Notes: a model not told the origin generated them from the letters alone. DNA of 64,000 nt from an uncultured Spirochaetota bacterium (GCA_963734495.1 CAVTHK010000013.1:160001-224000), one strand, 5' to 3'. Positions 4,489 through 60,989 are shown, numbered from the stretch's first letter. Numbers and translations: made by a program.

Positions 4489-4563
4489 CCGCGGCCGTCT
4501 CTTCTCCATCGTCCCCGACCGGTGATACCATCAGCCTTCGATTCCGCACGCAGGAGATGACCC

Positions 4564-5163: not shown

Positions 5164-5166
5164 GCT

Positions 5167-5761: not shown

Positions 5762-5765
5762 GGCG

Positions 5766-8164: not shown

Positions 8165-9477
8165 GCATCCGCACACTGGCGGCAGCGGCCGCCCTCCTCG
8201 CCCTGGCTGCCGCCGCTCTCCCCGCGGAGCGCGTGACGGTCGACCGGGCCGTCGAGCTTGCCGTCGCCAACAACCTCGGGCTCGCATCGGAGCGCGTGGG
8301 CCTCGAGGCGAGGAAGCTCGTGCGCGACACGGCCTGGAACCGGTTCATCCCGAACGTCACCGCGGGCACCAGCCTCTTGCGGCGCAACGAGGGAACCGAC
8401 TGGCTGGCGCCCGGCGCCCCGCGCTGGGCCTTCGGGGTGAGCCTGAGCGCGACGCTGCCGCTCAGCATCGCCCTCCGGGACGGCATCGAGGCGACGGTGA
8501 TCGACTACCAGGCCGGGCGCCTGAGCCTCGAGACCGCGGAGAAGCAGATCTCCCGTGACGTGCGCAAGGGCTTCTACAGCCTTCTGCTGATCCAGAAGAA
8601 CATCGAGCTGATGCAGCAGAGCATCGACAACGCCGACAAGCGCTATGCGCAGGCCAAGGCCAACTACCAGGCGGGCCTCGTCCCCGAGTACGACATGCTG
8701 AGCGCGGAGGTCGCGCTCAAGAACCTCCGACCGCCGCTGGAGGACCTGCGCAACTCCTACGAGGCGGCACTGGGGGGGTTTCGCCTGACACTGGGCGTCG
8801 ACCGCAAGGCACCGATCGAGCTCGACGGATCGATCGAGATCGCCCCGTCGACGTTCGACGCGACGAACCTGATCGACACCCGGGTCGCGCACAGGCTGGA
8901 CATCCAGAGCCTCGACCTGGCCCTGGTCGGCCTGCGCAACGGGCGCCAGGCGGCGTTCTACCAGCAGATGACTCCGACCCTCGCGCTGTCGTTCCTCGTC
9001 GATCCCACCTACAACAGGGACCCGTTCAGCGGCGACCTGTCCGGCGGGGAATGGCAGCAGAGGCAGGGCTCGTTCGTCATATCGCTCACGATGCCGCTCG
9101 ACCCGCTCGCTCCCCATTCGGTCACGCGAGTCGGGCTCGCGAAGGTCGACAGCCAGATCAGGCAGACGGAGCTGGCCCGGGAACAGGCGCTGCGGGGCGC
9201 GGCGCTCGAGATCGAAACCCTCGTGCGCAGCCTGGACAAGGACCGGACGTCGGTCGAAACGCTCGAGGGCAACGTCGATCTCGCCGACAGGGCTTTCCGT
9301 CTCGCCCAGGAGGCGTACAACGCCGGCGGCCGCTCCCTGCTCGAAGTCCAGAACGCGGAGCTCGAGCTCAACACGGCTCGCGTCGAAGTCCTCAAGGCCA
9401 AGTACGGCTACATTACCGGCCTGCTCGACCTGGAATACGCGGTGAACATGACCCTGAGAGAGGGAGGACAGAAATGA
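8161..9477 (+). CDS. TolC family outer membrane efflux protein
   Basis: Signal peptide, AVELAVANN, coiled-coil repeats ending YQAG/YNAGGRSLLEV; operon context. Confidence 0.9.
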   Translation: MSIRTLAAAAALLALAAAALPAERVTVDRAVELAVANNLGLASERVGLEARKLVRDTAWNRFIPNVTAGTSLLRRNEGTDWLAPGAPRWAFGVSLSATLPLSIALRDGIEATVIDYQAGRLSLETAEKQISRDVRKGFYSLLLIQKNIELMQQSIDNADKRYAQAKANYQAGLVPEYDMLSAEVALKNLRPPLEDLRNSYEAALGGFRLTLGVDRKAPIELDGSIEIAPSTFDATNLIDTRVAHRLDIQSLDLALVGLRNGRQAAFYQQMTPTLALSFLVDPTYNRDPFSGDLSGGEWQQRQGSFVISLTMPLDPLAPHSVTRVGLAKVDSQIRQTELAREQALRGAALEIETLVRSLDKDRTSVETLEGNVDLADRAFRLAQEAYNAGGRSLLEVQNAELELNTARVEVLKAKYGYITGLLDLEYAVNMTLREGGQK

Positions 9478-13500: not shown

Positions 13501-13696
13501 GGGCGAGGGCTCCAGCATCGTGCAGCCGATCGGCAAGACCATCCTCGGGGGACTCTCGGTGAGCACGTTCCTCACCCTGTTCCTCATCCCGGTCATCTAC
13601 TCGATCTTCAACCAGGCTTCGGACAGGAGACTGGCTCGCGCCGCGGCGCGGCGGGAACGGACCCGCCGCCGCAGGCTCGAGGAGGTCCGCGCATGA
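10507..13696 (+). CDS. RND efflux permease (AcrB/AcrD/AcrF family), apparent frameshift near 12365
   Basis: GMLVDNSIVILENI, GVVVNNGIVLVD, RLRPILMT across ORFs 10507-12501 and 12422-13696. Confidence 0.93.
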
Positions 13697-13968
13697 GGCG
13701 TATCGAGATCATCGCCAACCGGTCGGTCGAAACCGACGTGATGGAGGCCCTGCGCAGGCACGACGCGGCGCGGTATCACACAAAGGTCCCGACGGCCCAC
13801 GGGGTGGGCAGCTCGGGGCCGCGACAGGGGGACGCGGTCTGGCCCGAGGAGAACTTCGTGCTTATTGTCTACTGCGAGGACGCGGAAGCGCTTCGGGTTC
13901 GCGAGGCGATCGGCGAGGTCAAGAAGCTCTTCCCGGACGAGGGCGTCAAGCTCTTCGAGATGGCGTAA
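13693..13968 (+). CDS. Small PII-like transporter-associated protein (PG0541-like)
   Basis: MRRIEIIAN...HGVGSSGPRQGDAVWPEENF; overlaps the RND permease stop. Confidence 0.75.
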   Translation: MRRIEIIANRSVETDVMEALRRHDAARYHTKVPTAHGVGSSGPRQGDAVWPEENFVLIVYCEDAEALRVREAIGEVKKLFPDEGVKLFEMA

Positions 13969-14012
13969 CCCGCCGCGACCGCCCCCTCTTGTCCTCGAGG
14001 GAGGAGGAGAGA

Positions 14013-14996
14013 CTGAAGGCCATCCAGGTCGAGACGCGCGCCGGACGGCCGGTCCTGGTCTGGGGCCACGCCCCCGATCCGCAGCCGGCTGCCGGCGAGG
14101 TTCTCATCGCCGTCGCCGCCGCCGGCGTCAACCGCGCCGATCTCGCCCAGGCCGCGGGCGGCTACCCCGTCCCGCCCGGCGCGTCGCCGGTGCTCGGGCT
14201 GGAGGTCGCGGGATCGATCGCGTCGCTCGGCCCGGGCGTCTCGGGCGAATGGCGGCCGGGCGACCGCGTCTGCGCCCTGCTCGCCGGCGGCGGCTACGCG
14301 GAACTGGCGGCGGCGGACCAGAGGCTGCTGCTCCGCCTCCCGGACGCCTGGACCTTCGCACAAGGCGCCGCGGTGCCCGAAGCGTGGCTCACGGCCTGGG
14401 TCAACCTGATGATCGAAGGAAGGCTCCGCGCGGGCGAGAGCCTGCTGGTGCACGCCGGCGCGAGCGGGGTCGGCACGGCGGCGATACAGACGGCGCGGCG
14501 GGCCGGGGCGACGGTATACGCGACCGCGGGCGGTGAGGCCAAGATCGCCGTCTGCCGCGAGCTCGGCGCGGCTGCGGCGTTTGACCGCGTGCGCGGCGAC
14601 TTCGCCGAGGCCGTGCTCGCCGCGACCGGCGGCGCGGGAGTCGACCTCGTGCTCGACCCCGTCGGAGGGCCCTACCTGCGCAGCAACGTGCGCGTCCTCA
14701 AGGAGCACGGCCGTCTCGTGAGCATTGGCCTGCTCGGAGGCCGCAGCGGCGAGCTCGACCTCTCGGCGGTGCTCGGCCGCAGCCTCGAGATCCGCGGCTC
14801 GCGCCTGCGCCCCCGCCCGCTCTCCGAAAAGGCGCTCATCGTGCAGGGGTTCGCGCGCAACGTGTGGCCCGCGCTGCTTGCCGGAGAGCTGCGGCTGATC
14901 GTCGACCGGGCCTTCCCGATGGCCGAGGCCGGCGCCGCGCACGACTACGTCCGGGCCAACCGCAATACGGGCAAGGTGATCCTGTCGGCCCCTTGA
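14013..14996 (+). CDS. NAD(P)H-quinone oxidoreductase, PIG3 family
   Basis: AGVNRADL, LGLEVAG, HAGASGVG, GKVIL; start uncertain (CTG 14013 after GAGGAGG, or TTG 13989). Confidence 0.9.
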   Translation: MKAIQVETRAGRPVLVWGHAPDPQPAAGEVLIAVAAAGVNRADLAQAAGGYPVPPGASPVLGLEVAGSIASLGPGVSGEWRPGDRVCALLAGGGYAELAAADQRLLLRLPDAWTFAQGAAVPEAWLTAWVNLMIEGRLRAGESLLVHAGASGVGTAAIQTARRAGATVYATAGGEAKIAVCRELGAAAAFDRVRGDFAEAVLAATGGAGVDLVLDPVGGPYLRSNVRVLKEHGRLVSIGLLGGRSGELDLSAVLGRSLEIRGSRLRPRPLSEKALIVQGFARNVWPALLAGELRLIVDRAFPMAEAGAAHDYVRANRNTGKVILSAP

Positions 14997-46982: not shown

Positions 46983-48239
46983 ATGGAAGTCACCATCCGC
47001 CCCGGAACGCTCTCGGGCCGCGTTCGCGTCCCGGCGTCCAAGTCGCACACGATCCGGGCGTTGATCATAGCCGCCCTCGCCGAAGGCGAGTCGCGCGTCA
47101 TCCATCCGCTCGACTCGGCGGACACGCGCTCGTGCCTCGCGTGCTGCCGGGCGCTCGGCGCCGAAATCGGGGAGCGCCCCGGCGAATGGGTCGTGCGCGG
47201 CACGGCAGGCCGGCCGATTGCGCCCGAGAACGTCGTCGACGTGGGCAACTCGGGCACGACCCTCTACATCGCCATGGCCGCCTCGGCGCTGGCCAAAGGC
47301 TTTACGGTGTTCACGGGCGACGAGCAGATCCGGCGGCGGTCCGCGGCAAACCTGCTCGGCGCGCTGCGCGACCTCGGGGCGACGGCGTTCGACACGCGAG
47401 GCAACGGCTGCGCGCCCCTGGTCATCGGCGGCCCCCTCCGCGGCGGCCGCACGGCGATCGCCTGCCCCACCTCGCAGTATCTCTCGGCCCTGCTGCTGGC
47501 GGCCCCGCTCGCCGCTGAAACGAGCGAGATCGAGGTGACGCTGCTGAACGAGCAGCCGTACGTCGAGATGACCCTCGACTGGCTGAAGCGCCAGGGCATC
47601 CGCCTCGAGCGGCGCGGGCTGATGTGGTACCGCGTGCCCGGCGGCCAGGCGTACGGCGCGTTCGAGCGCGCGGTGCCGGGCGACTTTTCCTCGGCCACGT
47701 TCTTCTTCTGCGCGGCGGCGGTCACGGGTTCGTCGGTCACAGTGGAAGGGCTCGACCCCAACGACTCGCAGGGCGACAAGGAAGTGCTCGGCCTGCTCGA
47801 GCAGATGGGATGCCGCGTGAGCTGGAGCGACACCTCGGTCACCGTCGAGGGCGCGGCGCTCAAGGGGATCGAAGCCGACCTCAACGCGATGCCCGACGCC
47901 CTGCCCGCGCTCGCCGTGACCGCCTGCTTTGCCGAGGGGACGACCCGCCTCGGCAATGTCCCGCAGGCGCGGCTCAAGGAGACCGACCGCATCGCGGTGA
48001 TGGCCACGGAGCTCTCCCGCCTCGGCGCCACGGTGCGCGAGGAGCCCGACGGTCTCGTGATCGAAGGCTCGCGACTGCGCGGCGGAAGCGTCGACGGCCA
48101 CGGCGACCATCGCGTCGTCATGGCGCTGGGGATCGCCGGCCTGGGGGCCAAGGGGGGCACGACGGTGAGCACCGCGGAGTCGGCCGCGGTGACCTTCCCC
48201 AGGTTCTTCGATCTGATGGAGGGCCTGCGGGCGCGTTAG
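46983..48239 (+). CDS. aroA: 3-phosphoshikimate 1-carboxyvinyltransferase
   Basis: SKSH, GNSGTT, SQYLSALL, KETDRI, DHR. Confidence 0.96.
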   Translation: MEVTIRPGTLSGRVRVPASKSHTIRALIIAALAEGESRVIHPLDSADTRSCLACCRALGAEIGERPGEWVVRGTAGRPIAPENVVDVGNSGTTLYIAMAASALAKGFTVFTGDEQIRRRSAANLLGALRDLGATAFDTRGNGCAPLVIGGPLRGGRTAIACPTSQYLSALLLAAPLAAETSEIEVTLLNEQPYVEMTLDWLKRQGIRLERRGLMWYRVPGGQAYGAFERAVPGDFSSATFFFCAAAVTGSSVTVEGLDPNDSQGDKEVLGLLEQMGCRVSWSDTSVTVEGAALKGIEADLNAMPDALPALAVTACFAEGTTRLGNVPQARLKETDRIAVMATELSRLGATVREEPDGLVIEGSRLRGGSVDGHGDHRVVMALGIAGLGAKGGTTVSTAESAAVTFPRFFDLMEGLRAR

Positions 48240-48282
48240 CCCGATGGCCGGTGAGCCGGTACCTGGCCGCGGGACCCGCGCG

Positions 48283-49020
48283 CTACCAGTCGACCTCGCT
48301 CTGGAAGCGCGAGATCACGCGCGCGAGATCGATCTTGCCCTCGTAGATCGCCTTGCCCGTGATGATGCCGCGCACCAGGGGGTGGCGGCGGCGAGCCACG
48401 GTTTCGACGTGCAGCTCGGATCCGATGCCGCCGGAAAGCAGCGTCGGAAGCCCCGCGGCCTTGGCGACGAGGTTCGTCCTCTCGATGTCGGGACCGGCCA
48501 GGGTCCCGTCCCGGCCGATGCTCGTGTAGATGAGCCGCTGGAGCCCCGCGACGGCGAGCCCCAGCGCCATCTCCTGGTCCCGGCGGTGGGTGTCCTTCTT
48601 CCATCCCTTGATCTTGACGCGGCCGCGCTCGGCGTCTATCCCCGCGGCGAACCGCGGCGCTCCGAAGCGTTGGAGCCACTCGGCGACTGCCTCGGGCTCG
48701 CTCACGAGGACCGTGCCCAGGATCAGTCGGTCGGCGCCGAGCTCGATCACGCGGCGGACGTCCGAGGCGGTGCGGATCCCGCCGCCCACCTCGATGCGGC
48801 AGGCGACGGCGCGGCGGATCGATTCGATCGCGGCGCGGTTGTCCACCTCGCCGCGCGCGGCGTCCAGGTCCACGACGTGGAGCCACGCGGCCCCGGCCTG
48901 CTCGAGCTGCTTCGCCATGTCGGCGGGACGCTCGTCATAGATGCGGCTCGAGCTGTAGCGGCCCTGGAGCAGGCGCACGCATTTGCCGTCGAGCAGGTCG
49001 ATCGCGGGTATGATCAGCAC
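48283..49020 (-). CDS. hisA: ProFAR isomerase
   Basis: IIPAIDL, HVVDLD, GGGIR, DGTLAGP, GKAIY. Confidence 0.94.
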   Translation of the reverse strand: MLIIPAIDLLDGKCVRLLQGRYSSSRIYDERPADMAKQLEQAGAAWLHVVDLDAARGEVDNRAAIESIRRAVACRIEVGGGIRTASDVRRVIELGADRLILGTVLVSEPEAVAEWLQRFGAPRFAAGIDAERGRVKIKGWKKDTHRRDQEMALGLAVAGLQRLIYTSIGRDGTLAGPDIERTNLVAKAAGLPTLLSGGIGSELHVETVARRRHPLVRGIITGKAIYEGKIDLARVISRFQSEVDW

Positions 49021-49061
49021 GCCGTTTGACTCCTCGCACCCCGCATACTATCCTCGCGCGC

Positions 49062-50306
49062 GTGGAAGATAAAGCGTCGGTCGAGCGGCTCCAGAAGCGG
49101 CTGCTCCAGCGCCTGCTGAGCTACGTACGGGTCGACACGGCCTCGGACGGGCACCTCGCAGCCCGGCCTACCACGCCCGGCCAGGGGCAGCTCCTGCAGG
49201 CGCTCCAGTCGGAGCTCGCCTCGTTCGGCGGCGTGGACACCGAGCTGCACGAAGGCCGGGTGCTGATCGCGCGCCTCCCCGGCACGCGGCCCGGGGCGCC
49301 CGTCGTCGGCTTCATGGCCCACGTCGACACGGTCGGCGACCCGAGCGGGTCGGGAGTCACGCCGGTGGTGCACGAGCGCTACGACGGCCGCGCGATCGAG
49401 CTGGCCGAGGGCAGGAGGCTGGACCCGGCCGAAGCGACCGATCTCAAGCGCTACGCGGGCGCCACTCTCGTAACGTCAGACGGGCGTACGATCCTCGGGG
49501 CCGACGACAAGGCCGGCGTCGCCGAGCTGATGACCGCGGCCGAGGCGCTGGCGTCGATGCCGGCGCGGGCCAGGGGACCGGTCGAGATGTACTTTACGAC
49601 AGACGAAGAGACCGGCTTCGGGATGCAGGGGTTTCCCAAAGAGAAGGCGCGCTGCGTCTGCTGCTACACGCTCGATGGCGAAGGCGAAGGCGGCATCGAG
49701 GCCGAATGTTTCCACGCCTACAGGGTGCAGGTGCACTTTACCGGCCGCGTCTTCCACCTGGGGAGCGCTCGGGGCAGGCTCGTCAACGCGGTCGAGATGG
49801 CGGCCGCGCTGGTCAGCCTCCTGCGCGGGGCGGAAAGCCCGCAGGCGACCGACCTCCGCCACGGCTACTACTGCCCGTACGAGATCGGCGGAAACGTCGG
49901 CGAGGCGAGCCTCACCATCCTGCTTCGGGACTTCGACGACGCCCAGTGCTCACGGCGCATCGAGGCGATCAGGGCCGCTGCGGCCGCGGTCGAGCGCATG
50001 AATCCCGGCGGCACGACGCGCGTCGAGGTCGAAAAGCAATACGCGAACATGCGCGAGGAGCTGCAGCGCCACCCCGAGGTGCTGCGCCGGCTCGAGGAAG
50101 CGGTGCGCAAGACCGGGATCGAGCCCGAGTACAAGCTGATCCGCGGCGGGACTGACGGCGCGCGGCTCACGGAGATGGGCGTCCCGACTCCCAACATCTT
50201 CGACGGCGGCTACAACTATCATTCGCTTCTCGAGTGGGCGGCTTTGCCCGCGATGGTTCGGGCCACGCAGGTCGTGCTGAACCTTGTCGACCTCTGGGCC
50301 AAGTAG
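49062..50306 (+). CDS. pepT: Peptidase T
   Basis: AHVDT, GADDKAG, DEE, IRGGTDG, PNIF; promoter TTGACT-17-TATCCT lies 7 nt before GTG 49062. Confidence 0.92.
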   Translation: MEDKASVERLQKRLLQRLLSYVRVDTASDGHLAARPTTPGQGQLLQALQSELASFGGVDTELHEGRVLIARLPGTRPGAPVVGFMAHVDTVGDPSGSGVTPVVHERYDGRAIELAEGRRLDPAEATDLKRYAGATLVTSDGRTILGADDKAGVAELMTAAEALASMPARARGPVEMYFTTDEETGFGMQGFPKEKARCVCCYTLDGEGEGGIEAECFHAYRVQVHFTGRVFHLGSARGRLVNAVEMAAALVSLLRGAESPQATDLRHGYYCPYEIGGNVGEASLTILLRDFDDAQCSRRIEAIRAAAAAVERMNPGGTTRVEVEKQYANMREELQRHPEVLRRLEEAVRKTGIEPEYKLIRGGTDGARLTEMGVPTPNIFDGGYNYHSLLEWAALPAMVRATQVVLNLVDLWAK

Positions 50307-50392
50307 CGCTGCACAGGCCGGTGGGCGGGTCAGGGCCGACGCGCTGCTTCGTTTCATGCGCGAAAGCGCAGTCAGGACGCAGAGGAAAGACC

Positions 50393-51109
50393 GTGAAGGA
50401 ACGAAACGTGAAAAAGGTTTGCATAATAGGGGCATCCGGAAAGCTTGGCCAGTACATGGTGAGACACGCGCTTGATCGGGGGTACGAGGTCATCGCCGTC
50501 TGTCGGGGGCGTAGTGTGCCCAAGCTGGAAGCCTTCAAGGGACGAATCACGGTTGTCCCCGGAGCGACGAACGACCGCAAAGTGATCAGAGAGGCGGTTG
50601 CTGGATGCTACGGGGTGCTGACCGTGCTGTGGCCCTGGGGAGTTCACCAGTACTCGTCAGGGACGGCGCAGGCGGTGCTCGACTACGCGCCACCTGGTGC
50701 GCGCCTGGTATTCTCCTGCGGTTGGCATATCTCGCGGGACGGCCAGGATGTCTACTCAAAGGGCTTCAAGACGATGGAAAAGGCCGCCAGTTTGCTCGGC
50801 AAGCTGCTGCGCGCATTCGAGATCGAGGACCAGGTGGAAGCGTGTCGACGCGTGTTTGCCAGTGACACGCGGTGGACCGTGGTTCGCGGGAGCGATCTGG
50901 AGGAAGGCGAGAGCCAGGGTCTGCCGGTATGGAGCAGGCATGTTGGCGACCCGATTCTAGAGAGCAACATGACGCGCCGTGTGGACTTCGCGCTGTTCAT
51001 GGTGGCGGCGCTCGAGAACGACGAACTGGTTCACGAGGCTCCGGCGATTGTGGGCTGCCAGACGACTTCGGCACTCGCCGCCAAGGGGCAAGAGCGCGTG
51101 CAGATCTGA
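50393..51109 (+). CDS. NAD(P)-binding oxidoreductase (NAD-dependent epimerase-like), lower GC
   Basis: IIGASGKLG Rossmann motif, WTVVRG, RVDFA; SD GAGG before GTG 50393. Confidence 0.85.
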   Translation: MKERNVKKVCIIGASGKLGQYMVRHALDRGYEVIAVCRGRSVPKLEAFKGRITVVPGATNDRKVIREAVAGCYGVLTVLWPWGVHQYSSGTAQAVLDYAPPGARLVFSCGWHISRDGQDVYSKGFKTMEKAASLLGKLLRAFEIEDQVEACRRVFASDTRWTVVRGSDLEEGESQGLPVWSRHVGDPILESNMTRRVDFALFMVAALENDELVHEAPAIVGCQTTSALAAKGQERVQI

Positions 51110-51208
51110 CCACTACTCGCGTGCACCGAGCATGTGGAACGGAAACCGTGATTGTGCGCCCCAGTGTGCACGTGTCACTCGCATGGCTCCCATAAGGCGC
51201 GTCGTATT

Positions 51209-51784
51209 CTACGGGATGGCTTGCTTCGGAAAGTCACCCTTTGTGATCGCCTGGATTTTGCCGCACACAAACTCCACCCGGTCACTGACCGAAGCCCGTG
51301 GAACTTCGACGACAAGATAGCCCAATCCCGCATAGACCCTGCGCACGTCCTCTCCGAACTGCCGTGCCGATTCGAAGTCCATCTTCCTTTCGTCATCTGT
51401 TGTGTATATCTCCTTCCAGCCACTGAAGAAGAACACGCACCTGTTGTATACGAACCGGCTGGCCGCCCTCTCATAGACCGCCCTGTCGACTTTGAAGAGG
51501 TCAGCATATGCAATGAGATCCGGAATCCCTCTGTCGAAAAGCGTGATCCCTTCTGCTTTCGGGTTGCTTTCGAATGCGTACATCGCCCTCGAAAGCAGCA
51601 ATTGATTGAACAGGCCGGCATCCGACTCCGGAACCCCCTGGCCGCGAATCGAGCGTTGCTCCCTCAGTACCTGCCGAGCCGGATCGTCGACACAGGCGAA
51701 ACCGACGGGCTTCATCCGAGCGAATACAGTGGACTTGCCGGCTCCCATCGCTCCAGTGAATACGAAGAACCTGTCCCGGATCAC
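51209..51784 (-). CDS. AAA_28-type ATPase (distal cassette)
   Basis: TGAMGAGKST Walker A, FDRGIPD, YTTDDER; SD GAGGAG before GTG 51784. Confidence 0.85.
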   Translation of the reverse strand: MIRDRFFVFTGAMGAGKSTVFARMKPVGFACVDDPARQVLREQRSIRGQGVPESDAGLFNQLLLSRAMYAFESNPKAEGITLFDRGIPDLIAYADLFKVDRAVYERAASRFVYNRCVFFFSGWKEIYTTDDERKMDFESARQFGEDVRRVYAGLGYLVVEVPRASVSDRVEFVCGKIQAITKGDFPKQAIP

Positions 51785-51915
51785 GCCAATCTCCTCAAAT
51801 CCGTTCGATCGCGAGATGGCCATGCGGCGGCGGAGCCGCGCATCCCGTGAGCGAATTCCCCTTCGGACGGCCAGAGGGATCTACTCTCCGCGCGATCAGT
51901 GGTCTACCAAACGCA

Positions 51916-52030
51916 GCCCGACATGGAGTTGAGCTGCGCCGCCGCGCGTACCGCGCCGCAGTGTACGCCACATGGCCGACGGTGGTAGGCGCGGCTTAAG
52001 TCGTCAGCTCCAACGATTTGATACTTATGC
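51916..52030 (-). repeat. attC site 1 (degenerate cores)
   Basis: L boxes pair with canonical bulges (GTTG[G]AGCTG[A]CG / CGCAGCTCAAC); R' is GTCGGGC; R'' has a 4-bp insertion (+ strand G[ATAC]TTATGC). Confidence 0.8.
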
Positions 52031-52053
52031 TCATCAAGCGATGGTGGCAATGC

Positions 52054-52962
52054 TCAGTTGAAGCCAGGAATGTCAAGAAAACCGCCGAATACCCACCCGC
52101 CGATGCCGTCGGGTCTGCGGACGGGGTACCACCAATCGTTCATGCCACCTATGTGCTGTTGGAGCTCCGGTCGGCCAACAATCTCTATGGTGTCGCCCTG
52201 ATTGAGGTAACCTACTATCCCGCCGTCAAGGCCAGGCATATTCCGGATCCGTACTTGTGAATCGCTCAGGATTGCCGAGACAGGCCTTGTGGGCCCTTCC
52301 GGAAGACGAGGCCACATTCGCCAACGAATCTCTGTGGTTGCGCGCACCTTGTAGCGTGTCCATGGACTGCCAGTATTGGTGTTCGTGTACTCGATCCTCT
52401 TTACGATCGCGAGGCCGCCGCCGAGGGCGCGGGCGAACCGGTAATCGTTCAGGTCGTCGGGCAAGAGAAGGTCCGTGCGTGTGACTCGACCATCCTTGAT
52501 TTCATACTTTGCGAATCCATATCGGTCGACGAGATTGTCCGACCGCCGTCCGTCCTGGATGGTGACGGCGATGGTGTTGCTGTTCATCCAGGCCCAATCG
52601 CCCTGACGGTTACCACCGCCAATATCCACGCCGGCCGCGACGTCAATGACTGTGAAAACACGGTAGGGAGAGGTCCCTGTATCTGCAAAGAGGTACCGAT
52701 CGTCGGGGGACCAACTGAGGAATCCAACGCCGTAGAAGTACTTGACCGGAACGAACACCTCCGATCCTCCACGATTGAGGTAAATGCCGGTGTGGTCGTT
52801 GTCCACGCCTTTGATGTCAGCGATGATCACTGAGTAGCTACGGCCATCGTTGGAAGAGTATCGCTTGGCATTTCTGACGACGGCAGTTACGTAGGTCGGC
52901 ACCTGAGCGTGGACGGTGACGGACACAGCCAGGAATGACGCGAAAGCAGCGGCGAGCCTCAT
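52054..52962 (-). CDS. Secreted protein with C-terminal bacterial SH3 domain (cassette)
   Basis: Signal peptide; WSPDDRY propeller-like motif; VRIRNMP..G.IVGYL..WY.V..GWVFGGFL SH3b motif. Confidence 0.75.
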   Translation of the reverse strand: MRLAAAFASFLAVSVTVHAQVPTYVTAVVRNAKRYSSNDGRSYSVIIADIKGVDNDHTGIYLNRGGSEVFVPVKYFYGVGFLSWSPDDRYLFADTGTSPYRVFTVIDVAAGVDIGGGNRQGDWAWMNSNTIAVTIQDGRRSDNLVDRYGFAKYEIKDGRVTRTDLLLPDDLNDYRFARALGGGLAIVKRIEYTNTNTGSPWTRYKVRATTEIRWRMWPRLPEGPTRPVSAILSDSQVRIRNMPGLDGGIVGYLNQGDTIEIVGRPELQQHIGGMNDWWYPVRRPDGIGGWVFGGFLDIPGFN

Positions 52963-53104
52963 CCTTGCCTCCCGCGATCAATCACTGCGGATGGTAGTAC
53001 GCATTCGGCTGCGACGCAATGCTTTCCGGAGCACGCGGAGCACGCACTGACGCGCAGAGTCTCAATCGACACCGCCGTTCATCGAAGGAGCTAGTCCCAA
53101 CACG

Positions 53105-53219
53105 GCATAATATAGAGTTCAGTAGAGCCGCCGCATCAAACCGGCCCCATCTGGAATTCCCAATTGCATTTTCCGATCCAGACGACCCTCAAGGCGACTA
53201 CCGCAACGATTAGTTGTGT
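53105..53219 (-). repeat. attC site 2
   Basis: + strand GCATAAT-ATAGAGTTCAGTAG...CTACCGCAACGATTA-GTTGTGT, 115 bp; R' GTT changed to ATT. Confidence 0.75.
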
Positions 53220-53251
53220 TCAATTGATTGTGATCTGCAACCTTGGGAAAG

Positions 53252-53809
53252 CTATTTCCCTTCATTTGAATAATGGAGAACAACAACCCCTGACTTGAAG
53301 ACCTTCGTGTCAACCAATGTAAGATTGATTCTCTCATTCAGATTATCGAATAGCCGCTTGCCCTTTCCGACAACAATCGGCTGAATTGCGAGCCAGTATT
53401 CGTCGATCAGGCCGCGGCGCATGAATTCCTGGCTAATGCTTATTCCACCTAACGAGATGTTCTTGCCAGGCTGCTGTTTCAACTGAATGACTTCGTCCAC
53501 CATGTTGTCTTTAGCTAATCTAGTATTGTTCCAGGCGGCCTTCTGAAGAGTCCGAGAAAAGACTATCTTTGGAACAGCATTAATCCTGTCAGCGAAATCA
53601 AGCTCACTCTTGGTGGCGTTTGGATCCTGGTGCGCATGGGGCCAGTAGCTTTCCATAAGCTGGTAGGTCACTCGTCCAAAGAGGGCAACGTCTGTGTCGT
53701 CGAGTAGACCACTGAAAAACTCGTGCAGTTCGTCGTCCGCGGCAACGGCCACCGTGTGATCAGCGAAACCATCGAGACTTAGGTTTATTGCTAAGGTCAG
53801 TTTCCTCAT
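53252..53809 (-). CDS. Dihydrofolate reductase / RibD C-terminal family protein (cassette)
   Basis: NLSLDG, LFGRVTY, KIVFSRTL, LIDEY..PIVVGKGKRLF, SGVVVLHY; most AT-rich gene seen. Confidence 0.9.
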   Translation of the reverse strand: MRKLTLAINLSLDGFADHTVAVAADDELHEFFSGLLDDTDVALFGRVTYQLMESYWPHAHQDPNATKSELDFADRINAVPKIVFSRTLQKAAWNNTRLAKDNMVDEVIQLKQQPGKNISLGGISISQEFMRRGLIDEYWLAIQPIVVGKGKRLFDNLNERINLTLVDTKVFKSGVVVLHYSNEGK

Positions 53810-53995
53810 GCACACCTCCAGCATTGGGCCCTACCTTGCAGTTCTTTTCACTGGCGCGGCCAAAAATATGCTCCAGTCCAATCTAAGAAATGCGAGCAAT
53901 CGAGGCAAACTTTGGTGATGTGAAGTTGACTGTCTGATGGCCCGTCTCCTTCTTGAGGCCAAACAAGCGTTGGAAGACGATAGCGTTTCATAGGC

Positions 53996-54102
53996 GCATA
54001 ACATAGAGTTTAGCTGCGCCGCCGCAAGCTCCCGCGCATCCAGTGTATACCAGGCCCGCTGACCGTGCCGGCGTGGCATAAGGCGTCAGCGATTTGGTAG
54101 AC
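53996..54102 (-). repeat. attC site 3 (6-bp deletion in the L'' arm)
   Basis: + strand GCATAAC-ATAGAGTTTAGCTGCGCCGCCG...GGCGTCAGC[TCCAAC missing]GATTT-GGTAGAC. Confidence 0.8.
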
Positions 54103-54196
54103 AGCCATCGAACACGCGCGTGGCATGTGTGATTGGGGATTGGTTCGGTCAGAGCGCATCCACGTTGGTGTGGCGTGAGTTGGAGCACACGACGCT

Positions 54197-54973
54197 TCAG
54201 CCCCCCTTTCTGGCGTGGATCAAGACGCAGACGTAGGATCGCAGCACTGATCCCCCGCTGTCGTCGATCGTACGTCGGATAACGTCAGCCATCTTGCTCT
54301 GCCGATCGAGCCCGAGGTTCCTGTAATCGGAATACGTTCTGAACAGGCCGATGTACTCCTCGGCAGAGTAGTGTTGCTGCCAGGGGTACTCTCGCAGTTG
54401 GCACGGTTCGAATAGCTTGCAAGCGCGCAATTCGTTCACCCAGCGGTCGATATCGCCCCTCGTTTGGGATTGGGTGATTCTTCCGCCGGTTTCATGCTCG
54501 AGCTTGTCGTTCAGGATAGCGAGCGGGCCTTCAAGAAAAGGGGTGAAGTTGTACAGCAGCGCGAGACTGCCCTTCTGTGACAGCAACCGGACGGTGTTCG
54601 TGAGCCGAACCATCGGGTCTATCCAGTGGAAGGCCTGCGCCGAGAAGACCAAGTCATAGTGGCCGGCGGGCGCCTCGAAAGACTCAAAAGCACCCGCTGA
54701 TATGCTGACAGCCGGCCAACGCCGGCAATTGGCAGCTGCAAGGGCTGCAAGCCGCTCCCCCAGCTCGATAGCGTGGATTCGATAGCCCATAGTCGCCAAG
54801 GGAACCGTTGCCTGCCCTGTTCCGCAGCCGACCTCCAGTAGGAGCGAAGATGGCCCTAACTCGGACAGTGCGACCATGTCACGTAGAGCGGCGGTAGGGT
54901 AACTCGGTCGGTAGGTGTCGTAATCCGCCGCTGCATCGTCGAAGACCACGCGAACGGATCGGTCGAAATCCAA
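54197..54973 (-). CDS. Class I SAM-dependent methyltransferase (cassette)
   Basis: YDTYRPSYP, LEVGCGTGQAT, AQAFHWID. Confidence 0.9.
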   Translation of the reverse strand: MDFDRSVRVVFDDAAADYDTYRPSYPTAALRDMVALSELGPSSLLLEVGCGTGQATVPLATMGYRIHAIELGERLAALAAANCRRWPAVSISAGAFESFEAPAGHYDLVFSAQAFHWIDPMVRLTNTVRLLSQKGSLALLYNFTPFLEGPLAILNDKLEHETGGRITQSQTRGDIDRWVNELRACKLFEPCQLREYPWQQHYSAEEYIGLFRTYSDYRNLGLDRQSKMADVIRRTIDDSGGSVLRSYVCVLIHARKGG

Positions 54974-54992
54974 GGCTACACCTCTCGAGGCG

Positions 54993-55036
54993 GGCTGTAA
55001 TTGGCTAGTTTAGTCAGCTCTAACGATTTGGACCGC
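54993..55036 (-). repeat. attC site 4, collapsed remnant
   Basis: Only GTCAGCTCTAACGATTTGGACCGC (R''/L'' arm) and GGCTGTAA (R' remnant) remain. Confidence 0.6.
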
Positions 55037-55094
55037 ACCGGTACTCCACCCGAGCCTCGGCGTGTGTTGCGGGACCTCCCGTTGCTGACTGATC

Positions 55095-55427
55095 CTACTT
55101 GTCCGAACGGCCGGACAGGGTCATCAGTTTCCTCACCTCTGTCGCGCTAGATCCAGCAATCAAGAGAGACCGCACCAGTAGGTCGAGGCTCACGGTCGGG
55201 TCGGCCGCCTCCATCTTCGCCACTCGCGACTGACTGGATCCGACCATTTTCGCGAGCTGGCTTTGCGACATGTTACGTTTCAGCCGCTGCCGGCGCAGTC
55301 TGTCTGCCAGCTCGAGCTTGATTTCGACATAGGCGGCCTCCTGCGGGGACAACTGCAGGAACTCGGCCGTAGTGCCTACTCTCCAGCCCTTGGAGGCAAG
55401 TCGTTTCTTCTTGCTCTCACGCATCAT
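55095..55427 (-). CDS. XRE-HTH antitoxin (HigA-like)
   Basis: GWRVG..AEFL, MSQSQLAKMVGSSQSRVAKME, VSLDLL; overlaps the upstream toxin. Confidence 0.88.
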   Translation of the reverse strand: MMRESKKKRLASKGWRVGTTAEFLQLSPQEAAYVEIKLELADRLRRQRLKRNMSQSQLAKMVGSSQSRVAKMEAADPTVSLDLLVRSLLIAGSSATEVRKLMTLSGRSDK

Positions 55428-55740
55428 CGTACTCCCGAAAGCGTTTCCGGCACGTTTCCATGATCGCTGCGGGGATAGCCTGGGTCTTCTTGCTGAACAC
55501 CTCGGCTATGACTATTGCGTCCCGGTCGATCCGATAGACGATTCGCCACGCCCCGCCGGTATCCCGTATGCGCAATTCGTAACACCGCGGCCCCAGTGTA
55601 GGCAGAGGTCTGGAAAACGGCATGCTGAGCAGCTCGCCTCGCTGTAGCCGTCGCAAGAGGAACCCCGCCTCCAACCGGCCCTTTTCAGAAAGAGGCGGCG
55701 TCCCCACCTGGCCGTGGAGCCATACCAACGGCTTATCCAA
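55417..55740 (-). CDS. RelE/HigB (Gp49-like) toxin
   Basis: KPLVWL..TPPLS, PFSRPLP..CYELR, WRIVYR, FSKKTQ; start TTG 55740 inferred from the promoter. Confidence 0.88.
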   Translation of the reverse strand: MDKPLVWLHGQVGTPPLSEKGRLEAGFLLRRLQRGELLSMPFSRPLPTLGPRCYELRIRDTGGAWRIVYRIDRDAIVIAEVFSKKTQAIPAAIMETCRKRFREYDDA

Positions 55741-55747
55741 TAGCCAC

Positions 55748-55776
55748 AATGTATGTCAGGCCTGACATATTGTCAA
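55748..55776 (-). promoter_or_regulatory. TA promoter with perfect 18-bp operator palindrome
   Basis: TTGACA-17-TACATT; TATGTCAGGCCTGACATA (55752-55769) spans the spacer. Confidence 0.8.
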
Positions 55777-55835
55777 GAGGCGTCCAACGGGGGCGCAGAC
55801 GACGCGGCTTCGTACGAACGACCTGATCTTGCGCG

Positions 55836-55949
55836 GTACAACATAGAGTTGAGTCGCGCCGCCGAGTAGCTCCCGCTCCCTCAGTGTACTGCAGCCCGGG
55901 CGGCCGTGCCAGCGACGGTTAAGGCGAAAGCTCCAACGATTTGCTAGGC
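55836..55949 (-). repeat. attC site 5
   Basis: + strand GTACAAC-ATAGAGTTGAGTCGCGCCGCCG...GGCGAAAGCTCCAACGATTT-GCTAGGC, 114 bp; R'' AAC changed to AGC. Confidence 0.85.
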
Positions 55950-56050
55950 GCACGAGCCATCACCTGAGCCTTGCTGCAAACAGAGCTTGAATCAGTTGTC
56001 AGGAATGATTGGATTTTCCCCACTTTCTGAGTCGCCCGGTAATCCCCTCA

Positions 56051-56797
56051 TCACCGCGGCATCAGCGCAAACACACCCCAGCCCAGGTATTCACGCGTGT
56101 AAGCGGCGTAGCGCTCGGGTTCCGAGGTCAGTTTGGCTCGAACATCTTTCGCGAACTCGTCGTCGGGATTGGCTTCAAGCCATCGGCGCATGGTGAGCCA
56201 TTTGGCCGCCTCGTATCTGTCCCAGCCGTCTTGGTCAGCCAGAACCATTTCAACGACGTCGTAGCCAAGATGGTCGAAAGACGCGAGAAGTTCAGGAAGC
56301 ACGAGAAAGTCGGAGATTGAGTTGGCAAGACACCCCTTGGCAACATCTTTCGTCGGCGGTAACTGCCGCCAGTAGGGCTCGCCGATGAGGATGATCCCTC
56401 CGGTGCGCAGGCTCCGCGCCAGAAGCTCGATAGTCCCGACGACTCCCCCGGCGATCCAAGTCGCACCGACACAGGCTGCCACACTGACCTTCTCGTCAGA
56501 GACATAGCCGGCAGCATCGCCATGGATGAACTTGACTTGATCGGCGACGCCGAGTTCTTTAGCACGGAGCTTCGCTTGCTCGGTGAACAACTGGCTCATG
56601 TCGACGCCGATGCCGATCACGCCGTGATCGCGTGCCCAGGTGCACAGCATCTCCCCCGAACCGCTGCCGAGGTCGAGCACTCGGGCCCCCGATTCCAGAC
56701 GCAGCGCCGCGCCGAGAGTGGCGAGCTTTTCGGGTGTGATCGGGTTGTGGATGCGGTGAGCACTCTCAGTGATGTTGAATATCCGTGGAATATCCAA
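56051..56797 (-). CDS. SAM-dependent methyltransferase, YjhP-like (cassette)
   Basis: MDIPRIFNITESAHRIHNP, LDLGSGSGEML, GEPYW, REYLGWGVFAL; recalled as close to E. coli YjhP. Confidence 0.88.
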   Translation of the reverse strand: MDIPRIFNITESAHRIHNPITPEKLATLGAALRLESGARVLDLGSGSGEMLCTWARDHGVIGIGVDMSQLFTEQAKLRAKELGVADQVKFIHGDAAGYVSDEKVSVAACVGATWIAGGVVGTIELLARSLRTGGIILIGEPYWRQLPPTKDVAKGCLANSISDFLVLPELLASFDHLGYDVVEMVLADQDGWDRYEAAKWLTMRRWLEANPDDEFAKDVRAKLTSEPERYAAYTREYLGWGVFALMPR

Positions 56798-56837
56798 TGC
56801 AGAAGATCTCCCTTTGGGTGTGAATAGATTCAGTTGC

Positions 56838-56951
56838 GCCTAACATAGAGTTGATAGCGCCGCCGAGTACCTACCCAGCTCACAGTATAGTCGAGCCTCA
56901 CCGACCGTGCCAGTCGGCCTCTTAGGCGTCTACTCCAACGATTCGTTGGAC
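56838..56951 (-). repeat. attC site 6 (intact cores)
   Basis: Top (-) strand GTCCAAC-5-GTTGGAGT...TATCAAC-5-GTTAGGC, 114 bp; matches RYYYAAC...GTTRRRY. Confidence 0.9.
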
Positions 56952-56964
56952 AGCGCGTTCGCGG

Positions 56965-57255
56965 CTACCCGCTCGACCGCCTGGAGCTTTCGGGTTCTGC
57001 CCGAGCGCGCCTCCAGAACTCCTCGTGTGTTTCGCCGCGTCCCGCTATGATGTTCCCGCGCGACCGCTTCAGCAGCGAGCGAAACCGTGGCGACCGAGAT
57101 AGCAGGATACCCTCCAGATCGTCGTCGTCCGCTGGTGCAACAATCACAGCAACCGCTCGCCCCTTGCGGGTTATCACAACGGGCCCGGAAGCCTCCGCCT
57201 CCTGCAAGTAGGCACTGAGTTTGGCCTTTATCTCGGCCAAGGAAGCGACCCTCAT
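56965..57255 (-). CDS. Phd/YefM family antitoxin
   Basis: MRVASLAEIKAKLSAYL..GPVVITRKGRAVAVI; ATGA overlap with the toxin. Confidence 0.9.
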   Translation of the reverse strand: MRVASLAEIKAKLSAYLQEAEASGPVVITRKGRAVAVIVAPADDDDLEGILLSRSPRFRSLLKRSRGNIIAGRGETHEEFWRRARAEPESSRRSSG

Positions 57256-57578
57256 AGCATGAACTCCTTTCCGCCAAAATAGAGCCGGTTGCCCTCTTTC
57301 ACGCCTATGGCTAGGACCCAAACCTGGCGCCGGTCCACGATGACCTCGTAAAAGACGCGGAAGCGATTCCTCGGGCCACAGCGTAGCTCCCACGTCGCGC
57401 CGAACGGGCCAGGAGAGCGTTCGAGCGGTTTCCGGTTGCGGGTAACCGCCTCCGGCGTGAACGATAGCTGCTCCCCAATCGTGTCGCTGAGCAGGCGAAA
57501 ATGAGAGCGGCCAAGTGCACGGACATGCTCATGCACCTCGGGTGCATACAGTAACGCGTACTTCTGCCTGCTAGCCAC
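57252..57578 (-). CDS. RelE/ParE family toxin
   Basis: TRNRKPL, WELRCG..RFRVFYEV, VLAIGVK; own promoter TTGACC-16-TATAAT 8 nt upstream. Confidence 0.88.
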   Translation of the reverse strand: MASRQKYALLYAPEVHEHVRALGRSHFRLLSDTIGEQLSFTPEAVTRNRKPLERSPGPFGATWELRCGPRNRFRVFYEVIVDRRQVWVLAIGVKEGNRLYFGGKEFML

Positions 57579-57757
57579 AGACCATAATTATAGTCATCTC
57601 GCCGCAAAGGTCAAGCGGCGGGAACTACGATTGGTCCCGGAAGGCCGCAGGAAGCGCGCCACGGCTGCCGAGCCGCAGCCGTCGTGCGTCCGCCCGAACG
57701 TGAAGGCGGCCGGTTATCGATGTGTCATTGGCGAATTGGGCGCGATCTAGTTTCAAA

Positions 57758-57799
57758 GCGCTGTCCGACAATCATATTCTGCAGTTTTGTGCCTGGCAA
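57758..57799 (-). promoter_or_regulatory. Putative attI crossover with overlapping Pc-like promoter
   Basis: - strand TTGCCA-17-TATGAT-T-G|TCGGACAGCGC; the 12-mer is 11/12 complementary to the R'' end of attC6. Confidence 0.65.
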
Positions 57800-57935
57800 G
57801 AATGCGCAATCGCCCGGAGGATCGCTGGTTCGTGTTGAGGCGGCGCGAACTGTCTCTTTGGAGTGTTGGGTGGTTGCTGCAATATCGCCTCAAGCGGTGG
57901 GTTATCGTCGCGTCGCTTGGGCGGGCGAGGCAGGT

Positions 57936-57970
57936 CGCGCTCGCGGCAACCATAGCGCCCCGCGAGCGCG
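57936..57970 (-). terminator. Hairpin after comM
   Basis: CGCGCTCGCGG-13 nt-CCGCGAGCGCG perfect 11-bp stem just after the comM stop. Confidence 0.5.
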
Positions 57971-57974
57971 GCAG

Positions 57975-59513
57975 CTAGCCCGCGTTCCAGAACGGGTGCT
58001 CCTGCCCGTGCCGGCGGTGCTGCAGCGCCTCCAGCACGTCGTCCTTGCGCAGCGTCTCGCTGCCGGCAAGGTCCGCGATCGTGCGCGCCACCTTGAGCAC
58101 CGAATGGCAGGCGCGCGACGACAGGTGCATGGTGCGCGCGGCCGTCACGAACTTTTCGGACACCTCGTCGTCCAGCTCGCAGTAGCGCGCGATCCGGCCC
58201 GGCGGGATCTCTGCGTTCCAGCGGAAGCCTTCGCCCTGGTAGCGGCGGCCCTGCATCGCCGCGGCGCGCGCCACGCGCTCGCGCACGGCAGCGCTGCCCT
58301 CCCCCGGCTTCCCGATCATCGTGCGCAAGGTCTCCGGCGCGACCGGGACGCGGATGTCGATGCGATCGAGGAGCGCTCCTCCGAGCCGCTTCCAGTAGCA
58401 GCGCACCTCTTCGGTCGAGCAGATGCAGACCTTTTCCGGGAGGCCGAGCTTGCCGCAGGGGCACGCATTAGCGGCGAGGACGAGCTGAAACGCGGCAGGG
58501 TAGCGGATCGAGGCGCCCGCGCGCACGACCGTGACCCAGCCGTCCTCAGCCGGCTCGCGCAGGCTCTGCAGCAGCGCCTGCCGGAACTCGAGGACCTCGT
58601 CGAGAAAGAGCACGCCGCGGTGCGCGAGGGAGACCTCGCCCGGCCGCACGAGGCGGCCCCCGCCGACGATGCCTTCGGCCGACGCGGTGTGGTGAGGCAT
58701 GCGGAAGGGCCTGCGCGTGATCAGCCCGCCCCCCGCGGGCAGCATGCCGGCGAGCGAGTGGATGCGGGTCACCTCGAGGCTCTCGTCACGGTCGAGCGGA
58801 GGCAGCAGCGTCGCAAGGCGGCGGGCGGCCATGGTCTTGCCGCTTCCGGGAGGACCGCAGAGGAACAGGTTGTGCCTGCCGGCCGCGGCGACCTCGAGGG
58901 CGCGCTTGAGGCGGCCGCTGCCGCGGATGTCGGAGAGGTCGCCGTACAGCTCCTCGAGCGGCGGCTCGGGCGCGGGCCGCGGCGGGGCGGCGGCCGCGAG
59001 CGCGCCGCTGCGCAGACCGCGCGCGCCCTCGGCGAGCGACGCGATCCCGCAGACGCGCCCCAGCCCGAGGCACAGCGCCTCCCGCAGATTGGGCGTCGGC
59101 ACGAGGAAGTGCGTGAGGCCGGCCTTGAGCCCGGTCGCAACAGCCGAGAGCACGCCGGTGACCGGCCGCACCTCGCCCGAGAGGTTGAGCTCGCCGAGCA
59201 CCATCACGCGCTCGAGCGCCCCGGGCGGGACCTGCTCGGACGCGGCCAGGACCGCGAAGGCGATCGCGAGGTCGAAGGAGGCCCCTTCCTTTCGGATGCC
59301 GGCGGGCGCGAGGTTCACGAGCACGCGCTCGCGCGGGAACTCGAAGCCGCTGTTGCGGATCGCGACGCGGACGCGCTCGCGCGACTCCTTTACGGCGCAG
59401 TCCGGCAGGCCGACGATGTCGATGCCGGGGACGCCGCGCCGGAGGTCCACCTCGACGCGCACGACCTCCCCGTCGATGCCGACCGGGGCATGGCACGCAA
59501 CCGAAGCGAGCAT
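57975..59513 (-). CDS. comM: YifB/ComM Mg-chelatase-like AAA ATPase
   Basis: IVGLPD.AVKESRERV, NLAPA, GPPGSGKTM, FRMPHHTAS, GEVSLAHRGVLFLDE, ARTIADL. Confidence 0.93.
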   Translation of the reverse strand: MLASVACHAPVGIDGEVVRVEVDLRRGVPGIDIVGLPDCAVKESRERVRVAIRNSGFEFPRERVLVNLAPAGIRKEGASFDLAIAFAVLAASEQVPPGALERVMVLGELNLSGEVRPVTGVLSAVATGLKAGLTHFLVPTPNLREALCLGLGRVCGIASLAEGARGLRSGALAAAAPPRPAPEPPLEELYGDLSDIRGSGRLKRALEVAAAGRHNLFLCGPPGSGKTMAARRLATLLPPLDRDESLEVTRIHSLAGMLPAGGGLITRRPFRMPHHTASAEGIVGGGRLVRPGEVSLAHRGVLFLDEVLEFRQALLQSLREPAEDGWVTVVRAGASIRYPAAFQLVLAANACPCGKLGLPEKVCICSTEEVRCYWKRLGGALLDRIDIRVPVAPETLRTMIGKPGEGSAAVRERVARAAAMQGRRYQGEGFRWNAEIPPGRIARYCELDDEVSEKFVTAARTMHLSSRACHSVLKVARTIADLAGSETLRKDDVLEALQHRRHGQEHPFWNAG

Positions 59514-59576
59514 CGTGCCCTCCCGAGGGAGGAGTCAACGGGCCCGCGGGTCGCGCTGCCTTGCGAGTCGCGTCGC

Positions 59577-60989
<1,413 letters not shown>

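Follow-up and report, generated by a model that had tools for sequence, protein, structure and literature searches.

How does an array of gene cassettes come to stand between two chromosomal genes with no integrase beside it? The question arises from a stretch of 64,000 nt from an uncultured Spirochaetota bacterium (GCA_963734495.1 CAVTHK010000013.1:160001-224000; hereafter the window), in which a run of genes between pepT and comM is punctuated by long repeats resembling attC, the recombination site of integron cassettes. We find here a real cassette array, partly decayed, of a kind already well described (Cury et al. 2016). Positions 51209-57769 very probably constitute a CALIN (a cassette array without an adjoining integrase) that forms part of the host's own chromosomal integron system.

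The array comprises about seven cassettes (nine genes). Every gene is on the minus strand, and an attC, always in the same orientation, stands behind each gene or toxin-antitoxin pair except the AAA_28 gene at the far end; because the minus-strand genes are each followed by a site, the minus strand of the window is the cassette top strand and the plus strand the recombining bottom strand. The five full attC sites lie 0.9-1.8 kb apart, which makes the run a CALIN in the sense of Cury et al. 2016 (at least two clustered attC sites, no intI nearby). GC content over 51000-57999 is 0.50-0.62, below that of the flanks (0.69-0.76 overall: 0.69-0.73 at 47000-49999, 0.71-0.76 at 58000-59499), and both flanking genes score over curated cut-offs: PepT at 405 bits (cut-off 255) and the YifB/ComM-family ATPase at 544 bits (cut-off 362). 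A preliminary description of the locus had proposed the same layout, with one minus-strand gene or toxin-antitoxin pair per repeat in DNA of low GC between pepT and comM, and in these respects it stands.

The attC family and its structure

The family was first located genome-wide by two short motifs and nhmmer, after which 22 copies from outside the window were aligned. A covariance model built solely from these 22 copies was run, with filters off, on the 64-kb window. It returned five matches, all on the plus strand and all inside the array (55.0-109.6 bits; E 1.6e-32 to 5.8e-15), at the five repeats first placed at 51916, 53105, 53996, 55836 and 56838; relative to these starts the model-match coordinates include 4 nt of flank. 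Elsewhere in the window the next match has E = 0.45. A repeat search of the window found conserved arms at 51912, 53101, 53992, 54999, 55832 and 56829. The remnant that the preliminary description had put at about 54993 does exist, and is now placed as a 19-nt half-site at 55012-55030, found by nhmmer in an 11-kb search and missed by the covariance model.

On the plus strand the family reads RYYYAAC, ATAGA, GTTGAG-TAG-CGCC ... GGCG-[T]-CTA-CTC-[C]-AAC, GATTT, GTTRRRY. The architecture is that of attC, as first suggested: the R boxes (RYYYAAC/GTTRRRY) are canonical, the L box pairs, and the spacers ATAGA and GATTT are 5 nt each. Sites are ~113-121 nt long, with one of 130 nt; the attC criteria applied were an unpaired central spacer of 5-6 nt per arm and a total length of 57-141 bp. 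The AAC triplet is present in all 22 outside copies and GTT in 16; the other six read GAT because an insertion sequence (IS; five sites) or a 4-nt insert (one site) splits the triplet. When the 3′ arm GGCG[T]CTACTC[C]AAC pairs with the 5′ arm GTTGAGTAGCGCC, two of its bases stay extrahelical; counting from the 3′ end these are bases 16 and 23, which lie opposite the AAC arm and are separated by a stem of six pairs. The bulged T is found in 21 of the 22 copies. For comparison, PMC5027507 describes attC as having ‘usually a G’ at position 16 and, beyond a 6-bp stem, a conserved T at position 23 or 24.

A hand-derived structure of 18 pairs was scored on the 22 outside copies: 93.2% of its cells pair, and shifting the partner by 1-3 columns lowers this to 28-50%. 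Both sides have changed in six of the 18 pairs (e.g. TAG/CTA, CTG/CAG, TCG/CGA); the covariation score was reached by none of 500 shuffles, and since the copies are related this is supportive rather than a probability. The RNAalifold structure of the same alignment mis-registered the L box through G-U pairs and was replaced by the hand-derived structure, which was checked by counts. As minimum-energy DNA folds, 12 copies close both R and L, 5 close L only (the five whose R″ is displaced by the IS) and 5 fold otherwise.

A second signature comes from the cassettes themselves. The start of a cassette (TTRRRY of R′) complements its own R″, because both form one R box in the circular form. On the six variable bases beside the GTT and AAC triplets, 13 of the 23 pairs of adjacent sites reach full complementarity (6/6), and the mean over adjacent pairs is 4.74, as compared with 2.90 for non-adjacent pairs (n = 706). 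The window pairs score 6, 4, 3 and 3 of 6, the last pair spanning the half-site; the methyltransferase cassette discussed below is 6/6. Complementarity also marks the comM-side end of the array: a search of 57580-57990 for the complement of the cassette 1 R″, allowing two mismatches, gives one match only, GTCGGACAG at 57769-57761 (minus strand), which is complementary to that R″ at 6/6 positions; matches with at most one mismatch number six in 128 kb of window sequence (both strands). This locates the start of cassette 1: the array begins at 57769 and its last site is at 51912, beyond which a probable terminal cassette reaches 51209.

Could the repeats have nothing to do with integrons, being instead a genome-specific palindromic intergenic repeat, akin to repetitive extragenic palindromic (REP) sequences or miniature inverted-repeat transposable elements (MITEs), or else terminators? 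Such elements would fit the absence of a matching family in Rfam (a scan of 49000-60000 gave two chance-level matches only) and the poor folding of the window copies on their own. The preliminary description had raised the prospect of a repeat scattered irrespective of genes, but the family occurs in six clusters only. Two of these adjoin intI directly, and every copy lies on the strand opposite the genes; this, together with cassette-wise R′/R″ complementarity and the canonical bulge geometry, leads us to disfavour a non-integron repeat strongly, as very improbable indeed.

Cassettes, integrases and sister arrays

Features of the array, from the comM side to the pepT side:

57761..57769, minus strand: R′ core GTCGGACAG, start of cassette 1 and comM-side array boundary (complement of R″)
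57587..57614, minus strand: promoter-like site TTGACC-16 nt-TATAAT before the first toxin-antitoxin cassette (11/12 consensus positions, a consensus match only)
57252..57578, minus strand: cassette 1 gene 1, putative small RelE/HigB-like (Gp49) toxin (Pfam Gp49 E = 0.0042, under the cut-off; called chiefly by its position next to the Phd antitoxin)
56965..57255, minus strand: cassette 1 gene 2, Phd/YefM-family antitoxin (PF02604 45.5 bits; TIGR01552 33.8 bits, cut-off 20.8)
56834..56953, plus strand: attC of cassette 1, the best-kept site (covariance model 109.6 bits)
56051..56797, minus strand: cassette 2, class I S-adenosylmethionine (SAM)-dependent methyltransferase, 248 aa (Pfam)
55832..55951, plus strand: attC of cassette 2 (covariance model 90.3 bits)
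55748..55776, minus strand: promoter-like site before the second toxin-antitoxin cassette (10/12 consensus positions, a consensus match only)
55417..55749, minus strand: cassette 3 gene 1, Gp49/HigB-like toxin (PF05973 43.1 bits, cut-off 23.9)
55095..55427, minus strand: cassette 3 gene 2, HTH_3 (Xre-type) antitoxin (PF01381 38.1 bits)
55012..55030, plus strand: half attC of cassette 3, R″-L″ arm only (nhmmer E = 0.018, model positions 92-113)
54197..54973, minus strand: cassette 4, SAM-dependent methyltransferase (Methyltransf_11/25; Pfam)
53992..54104, plus strand: attC of cassette 4 (covariance model 75.2 bits)
53252..53824, minus strand: cassette 5, RibD_C (dihydrofolate-reductase-like fold) protein (PF01872 65.8 bits)
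53101..53221, plus strand: attC of cassette 5 (covariance model 55.0 bits)
52054..52962, minus strand: cassette 6, protein with an apparent N-terminal hydrophobic signal-like stretch (by eye) and a C-terminal SH3 domain (SH3_3 39.7 bits)
51912..52028, plus strand: attC of cassette 6 (covariance model 72.3 bits)
51209..51823, minus strand: probable terminal cassette 7, AAA_28 ATPase without an attC of its own (PF13521 106.4 bits)

Against NCBIfam, eight of the nine cassette proteins reach no family over its cut-off and only Phd passes. No antibiotic-resistance gene was recognised among the cassettes by Pfam or NCBIfam, and as PADLOC returned nothing beyond generic methyltransferase-domain and helix-turn-helix (HTH) matches for the cassette proteins, no defence system is called. 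The RibD_C protein has three paralogues elsewhere in the genome (37-40% identity), none of them within arrays. The AAA_28 gene begins 90 nt past the R′ of the preceding attC; its protein was absent from genomes G001, G009, G016 and G028 at E <= 1e-10, in a search that carried no positive control. Between this gene and an NmrA-like neighbour (51100-51210) neither the covariance model nor nhmmer gave an attC signal. The neighbour, an NmrA/NAD_binding_10 gene at 50396-51109 (plus strand), converges on the last gene of the array, has a GC content of 0.63 and is without a counterpart in the same-genus genome. At the opposite end a further promoter-like site (57771-57799, minus strand; TTGCCA-17 nt-TATGAT, 10/12) abuts the R′ boundary of cassette 1 and is directed into the array. 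A second half-site, suspected by eye near 57625-57650, gained no support from nhmmer --max. The array is without an upstream Pc promoter; the likeliest source of expression would be the promoter-like sites that precede the toxin-antitoxin cassettes, and these two cassettes may also help to keep the array stable.

Where, then, is the integrase? Of the two fates first envisaged for it, loss or location elsewhere, it is the second that is found. A whole-genome profile search with TIGR02249 (curated cut-off 265 bits) returned two intI genes, at C11:2484-3419 (425.4 bits) and C1:17065-18003 (385.6 bits); both proteins also match Pfam Phage_integrase and Phage_int_SAM_4, and none of 14 control genomes gave a match over the cut-off. 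At each of these loci intI adjoins an array, the arrangement of a complete integron. The window locus is not of this type: TIGR02249 has no match at E <= 0.001 in the 64 kb, and on the 577-kb contig to which the window belongs its only matches are weak (44-47 bits) and ~200 kb from the array, in keeping with the original picture of about seven cassettes and no adjoining integrase. At both intI genes longer open frames, of 439 and 476 aa, are seen (L009 16612-18042 and L010 2118-3437, both plus), which would give N-terminal extensions if the longest frames are real.

The preliminary description had regarded the attC family as the array's own. It is instead genome-wide: the covariance model matches 31 sites, in six clusters, always on the strand opposite the genes:

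C1 (0.5-15.6 kb): 11 sites; ends 1.5 kb from intI
C11 (contig start): 2 sites; adjoins the other intI
C18: 5 sites
C9 (23-27 kb): 5 sites
C9:59890-64372 (60-64 kb): 3 weak, very degenerate sites (62, 35 and 32 bits), away from any integrase
Window array: 5 sites

Both intI genes are divergent from their own cassettes, which is the classical orientation. The nearest relatives of the two integrases are in Spirochaetales/Spirochaetaceae assemblies, at no more than 54% identity, which agrees with an early guess that the DNA came from a spirochaete. The accompanying remark that few integrons are described in this group needs correcting for the present order, where integrons are not rare: 16 of its 31 genomes have an IntI over the cut-off and the attC model finds related sites in 14 of 31 (this genome counted in both), with 83 and 77 matches in two genomes. 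In one genome of another family (G009), 65 attC sites occur within 40 kb (G009:C1:686000-726000) at intervals of ~0.4-0.9 kb, and matches reach 808 kb on the same contig: a very large, dense chromosomal array.

Taken as a working system, and by established integron biology, the arrangement would operate as follows. Each unit, one gene or toxin-antitoxin pair, is followed by an attC of ~115 nt, whose bottom strand (the plus strand of the window) would fold into an imperfect hairpin to be cut by an integron integrase between AA and C. Integrases acting on the array would be encoded in trans, by the intI genes on the two other contigs, both of which adjoin arrays with attC sites of this family; in principle, cassettes could then be cut out of the window array by such an enzyme and reinserted at its own attI.

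Damage to the sites and the origin of the array

Whether the window array still takes part in such exchange depends on the state of its sites. All five full sites carry lesions relative to the family, and one further site is reduced to a half. The AAC triplet is intact in three of the five and GTT in two. At attC 51912 AAC has become GAC and ATAC is inserted into the GTT of R″. Among full-length sites decay has gone furthest at attC 53101, where the cleavage triplet reads AAT for AAC, the L box is degraded, and 6 of 34 invariant columns are departed from. At attC 53992 GTT has become GGT and a 6-nt deletion, common to two C18 sites, removes the L″ box, 11 of 18 model pairs being kept. At attC 55832 the GTT of R″ has become GCT, the stem has mismatches and the T23 bulge is lost (13 of 18 model pairs kept; DNA fold z = +0.82). 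Only attC 56834 retains AAC, GTT and both bulges; it has lost 1 nt of L′ and differs from the family at 2 of 34 invariant columns, and its DNA fold (z = -1.67) leaves the R box open.

Of the 34 columns that show no variation among the 22 outside copies, 1-6 are altered in each window site (mean 2.8), as against a leave-one-out mean of 0.5 for the outside copies (one-sided Mann-Whitney p = 0.0009, with copies that are not independent). Folding of the bottom strand, which the preliminary description had proposed as a check, gives full closure of R and L in the minimum-energy DNA fold of 12 of 22 outside copies and of none of the five window sites. DNA-fold z-scores run from -1.67 to +0.82 in the window and are -1.85, -3.48 and -3.65 for three outside copies. 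The integrase-less C9 cluster likewise shows more departures than the intI-linked arrays. Because every attC has lesions in its R boxes, L box or stem, the array is, to judge from sequence, probably now a poor integrase substrate that is decaying in place and is largely fossilised.

A different reading is that of a fully working satellite array, swapping cassettes with both integrons. According to PMC5027507, integrases accept attC sites of divergent sequence, and some sites can do without one of their bulges; moreover, site 56834 keeps AAC, GTT and both bulges. However, four of the five full sites have a mutation in AAC or GTT, triplets that vary little or not at all among the 22 outside copies. 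A further site is only a half, and none in the window reaches the full fold; we consider a working array improbable. Joints that skip a cassette were absent from four metagenome runs, but these are assembled contigs of very thin cover and are uninformative on excision.

The ATAC in attC 51912 leads to a mobile element that targets attC. Five attC sites, four on C1 and one on C9, are interrupted at one and the same position (G^TT of R″) by an IS of ~1.56 kb that has a DEDD/IS110-type transposase (PF01548 and PF02371) and subterminal inverted repeats. The approximate ends of the copies are:

L009 (G000:C1): 2495-4060
L009 (G000:C1): 4687-6250
L009 (G000:C1): 7149-8715
L009 (G000:C1): 12827-14390
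L011: ~3630-5200

Two more sites carry ATAC alone at G^TT, one of them being attC 51912 (52021-52024). Comparison of flanks shows that ATAC matches the first 4 nt of the IS, and a paralogous cassette lacks the insert, so that ATAC is an addition; these marks are possibly footprints of IS excision. The window holds no copy of the IS itself, only the 4 nt in attC 51912. IS1111 members that target attC are known (the IS1111-attC group: ISKpn4, ISPst6; PMC11187229), and the IS described here is likewise ~1.56 kb, of IS110 type and located at one end of attC.

How the array reached its present position is best approached through the relatives of this genome. Comparison of the pepT-comM interval, suggested at the outset, does reveal variable content. 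In G001, of the same genus, the comM-pepT gap is 1.5 kb and holds a MazE/PemK pair and a Cad-family transporter, with no attC match; nucleotide homology between the window and G001 runs to 50299 and resumes from 57987. In G004 the gap is 4.8 kb, with other content (five larger open reading frames) and again no attC match. As the G001 and G004 gaps differ in content, the pepT-comM gap is a variable spot; the array, AAA_28 and the NmrA-like gene are specific to this genome among those compared. Between the comM stop codon and the boundary of the first cassette there are only ~205 bp. The DNA of the two junctions (57580-57990 and 51100-51215) matches nothing else in the genome to a meaningful degree, and this holds for the DNA near intI on C1 and C11 as well. 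We tentatively favour an array built in this variable gap by a trans-acting integrase at a secondary site, since the flanks are syntenic and the ~205-bp gap resembles neither intI nor intI-proximal DNA; the preference is a weak one. A secondary-site route to CALINs is mentioned in PMC4889954 and in the abstract of a preprint (10.1101/2022.09.11.507474).

The same junction bears on two other histories. The array might be the relic of a complete integron that once occupied the pepT-comM locus and later lost intI and attI. Loss of intI is one of four CALIN origins proposed in PMC4889954, and the promoter-like site (10/12) at 57771-57799 abuts the first cassette boundary. Yet only ~205 bp lie between the comM stop codon and that boundary, comM is syntenic with G001, the window has no TIGR02249 match at the threshold given above, and the junction is not similar to the intI-proximal regions of C1 or C11; a local relic is therefore unlikely, and less likely than a secondary-site origin. 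Alternatively, a piece of one main array may have been moved here by rearrangement or by homologous or IS-mediated recombination. Rearrangement too is a CALIN origin proposed in PMC4889954; the window attC sites are of the same family as those adjoining intI, the 6-nt deletion variant is common to two C18 sites, and an attC-targeting IS is active in the arrays and has its 4-nt mark in the last attC of the window. But both flanks are syntenic with G001, which excludes a simple integron split by inversion or translocation, neither array boundary has an IS copy or IS end, and a tblastn search with the cassette proteins of the window finds no copy of any of them in the other arrays, so that a moved piece is also doubtful.

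Several points weigh against the reading of the locus as a CALIN of the host's integron system, assembled at a secondary site. Both array ends read GTC, not GTT, and the recipient site is not reconstructable because G001 has different DNA there. The last gene, AAA_28, carries no attC, and the half-site at 55012-55030 is based on a weak match (E = 0.018). Membership of attC is based on a family-specific covariance model and on geometry; the bulge at position 16 is mostly C (A in 4, T in 1) rather than the usual G, its variation being as expected of an unpaired base. The window sites have no convincing fold on their own, which makes present activity doubtful. Finally, the genome is a binned assembly, 83% complete with 4.7% contamination, and that the intI contigs and the window contig come from one cell we infer from the shared attC family and similar GC.

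The methyltransferase cassette and known integrons

One cassette has a history that can be followed outside this genome. The 248-aa methyltransferase of cassette 2 (56051-56797) looks like a very widely transferred gene: among the matches listed, homologues of 89-97% identity occur in 120 clusters, with named members spread over many phyla (from Acidobacteriota, Betaproteobacteria, Nitrospirota, Verrucomicrobia, Spirochaetaceae and others), and one listed homologue bears the name YjhP. Each of the 24 listed sequencing runs contains only 6-10% of the sequence words. In four metagenome runs nearly all depth falls on the methyltransferase gene, at many times the depth of the rest of the stretch, other parts being thin or uncovered, and the homology stops at both ends of the gene; two of the loose ends resemble the start of another attC (letters read by eye). 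In the plasmid collection, copies of the gene are only 70-83% identical and its attC has no copy.

The copy in G009 (L101 1451-2249) is 94.75% identical over 800 nt and has the same GTTAGGC start; behind it lies an attC (39.5 bits) with an R″ complementary to GTTAGGC. Homology between the window and G009 ends at the stop codon: the 3′ tails (window 55952-56050, L101 2250-2383) and the attC sites are unrelated. The attC of the window copy is a strong member of this genome's family (89-90 bits), whereas the G009 site fits neither genome's attC family (12 and 17 bits). In contigs from two of the four metagenomes (X3, X7) the end of the tail resembles that of G009, by eye and without an alignment; the 3′ tail of the window gene (55945-56055) has no other copy in the genome. 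The cassette may conceivably be a natural case of re-fitting with the host's own attC type, a speculative reading that we think unlikely. If true, re-fitting of this kind would bear on how cassettes gain an attC and on why chromosomal arrays have homogeneous sites.

The array as a whole falls readily among known systems. CALINs as described by Cury et al. 2016 (PMC4889954) have, in the same way, at least two serial attC sites without a nearby intI, and ~5-6 sites is a typical size; their cassettes, too, are mostly of unknown function with none for resistance, and here as there the genome also encodes IntI, about half of CALINs being in replicons that encode IntI by that account. Relative to what PMC4889954 describes nothing essential differs. 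What the window array offers beyond it is a yardstick for decay, in the intact sister arrays of this genome, and a same-genus relative by which the insertion locus is bounded. The sedentary chromosomal integron of Vibrio cholerae (VCR sites), for which the comparison draws in part on PMC5027507, likewise has long (~115-120 nt) attC sites in a homogeneous genome-wide family, many cassettes with interspersed toxin-antitoxin cassettes, and an intI divergent from them. It differs in being from another phylum, in that the position-16 bulge is mostly C here and not G, in having three bulges in VCR2 against two here, and in that the window array is detached from intI.

Within Spirochaetota, integrons have already been recorded (PMC4889954, PMC8352920, PMC9668308), and those of Treponema are likewise a chromosomal system. 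PMC9668308 gives the typical Spirochaetota IntIs as being in reverse orientation, unlike the two intI genes of this genome, which are divergent and thus in the classical orientation. In PMC3607928 Treponema is called the only spirochaete clade with integrons, a statement to be set against the 16 of 31 genomes of the present order that have IntI over the cut-off.

The window array leaves the current picture of integrons unaltered. It adds a well-bounded example of how a cassette array persists and decays away from its integrase, and does so from an uncultured spirochaete order in which integrons of classical orientation are common (16 of 31 genomes, one of them with at least 65 sites in 40 kb).

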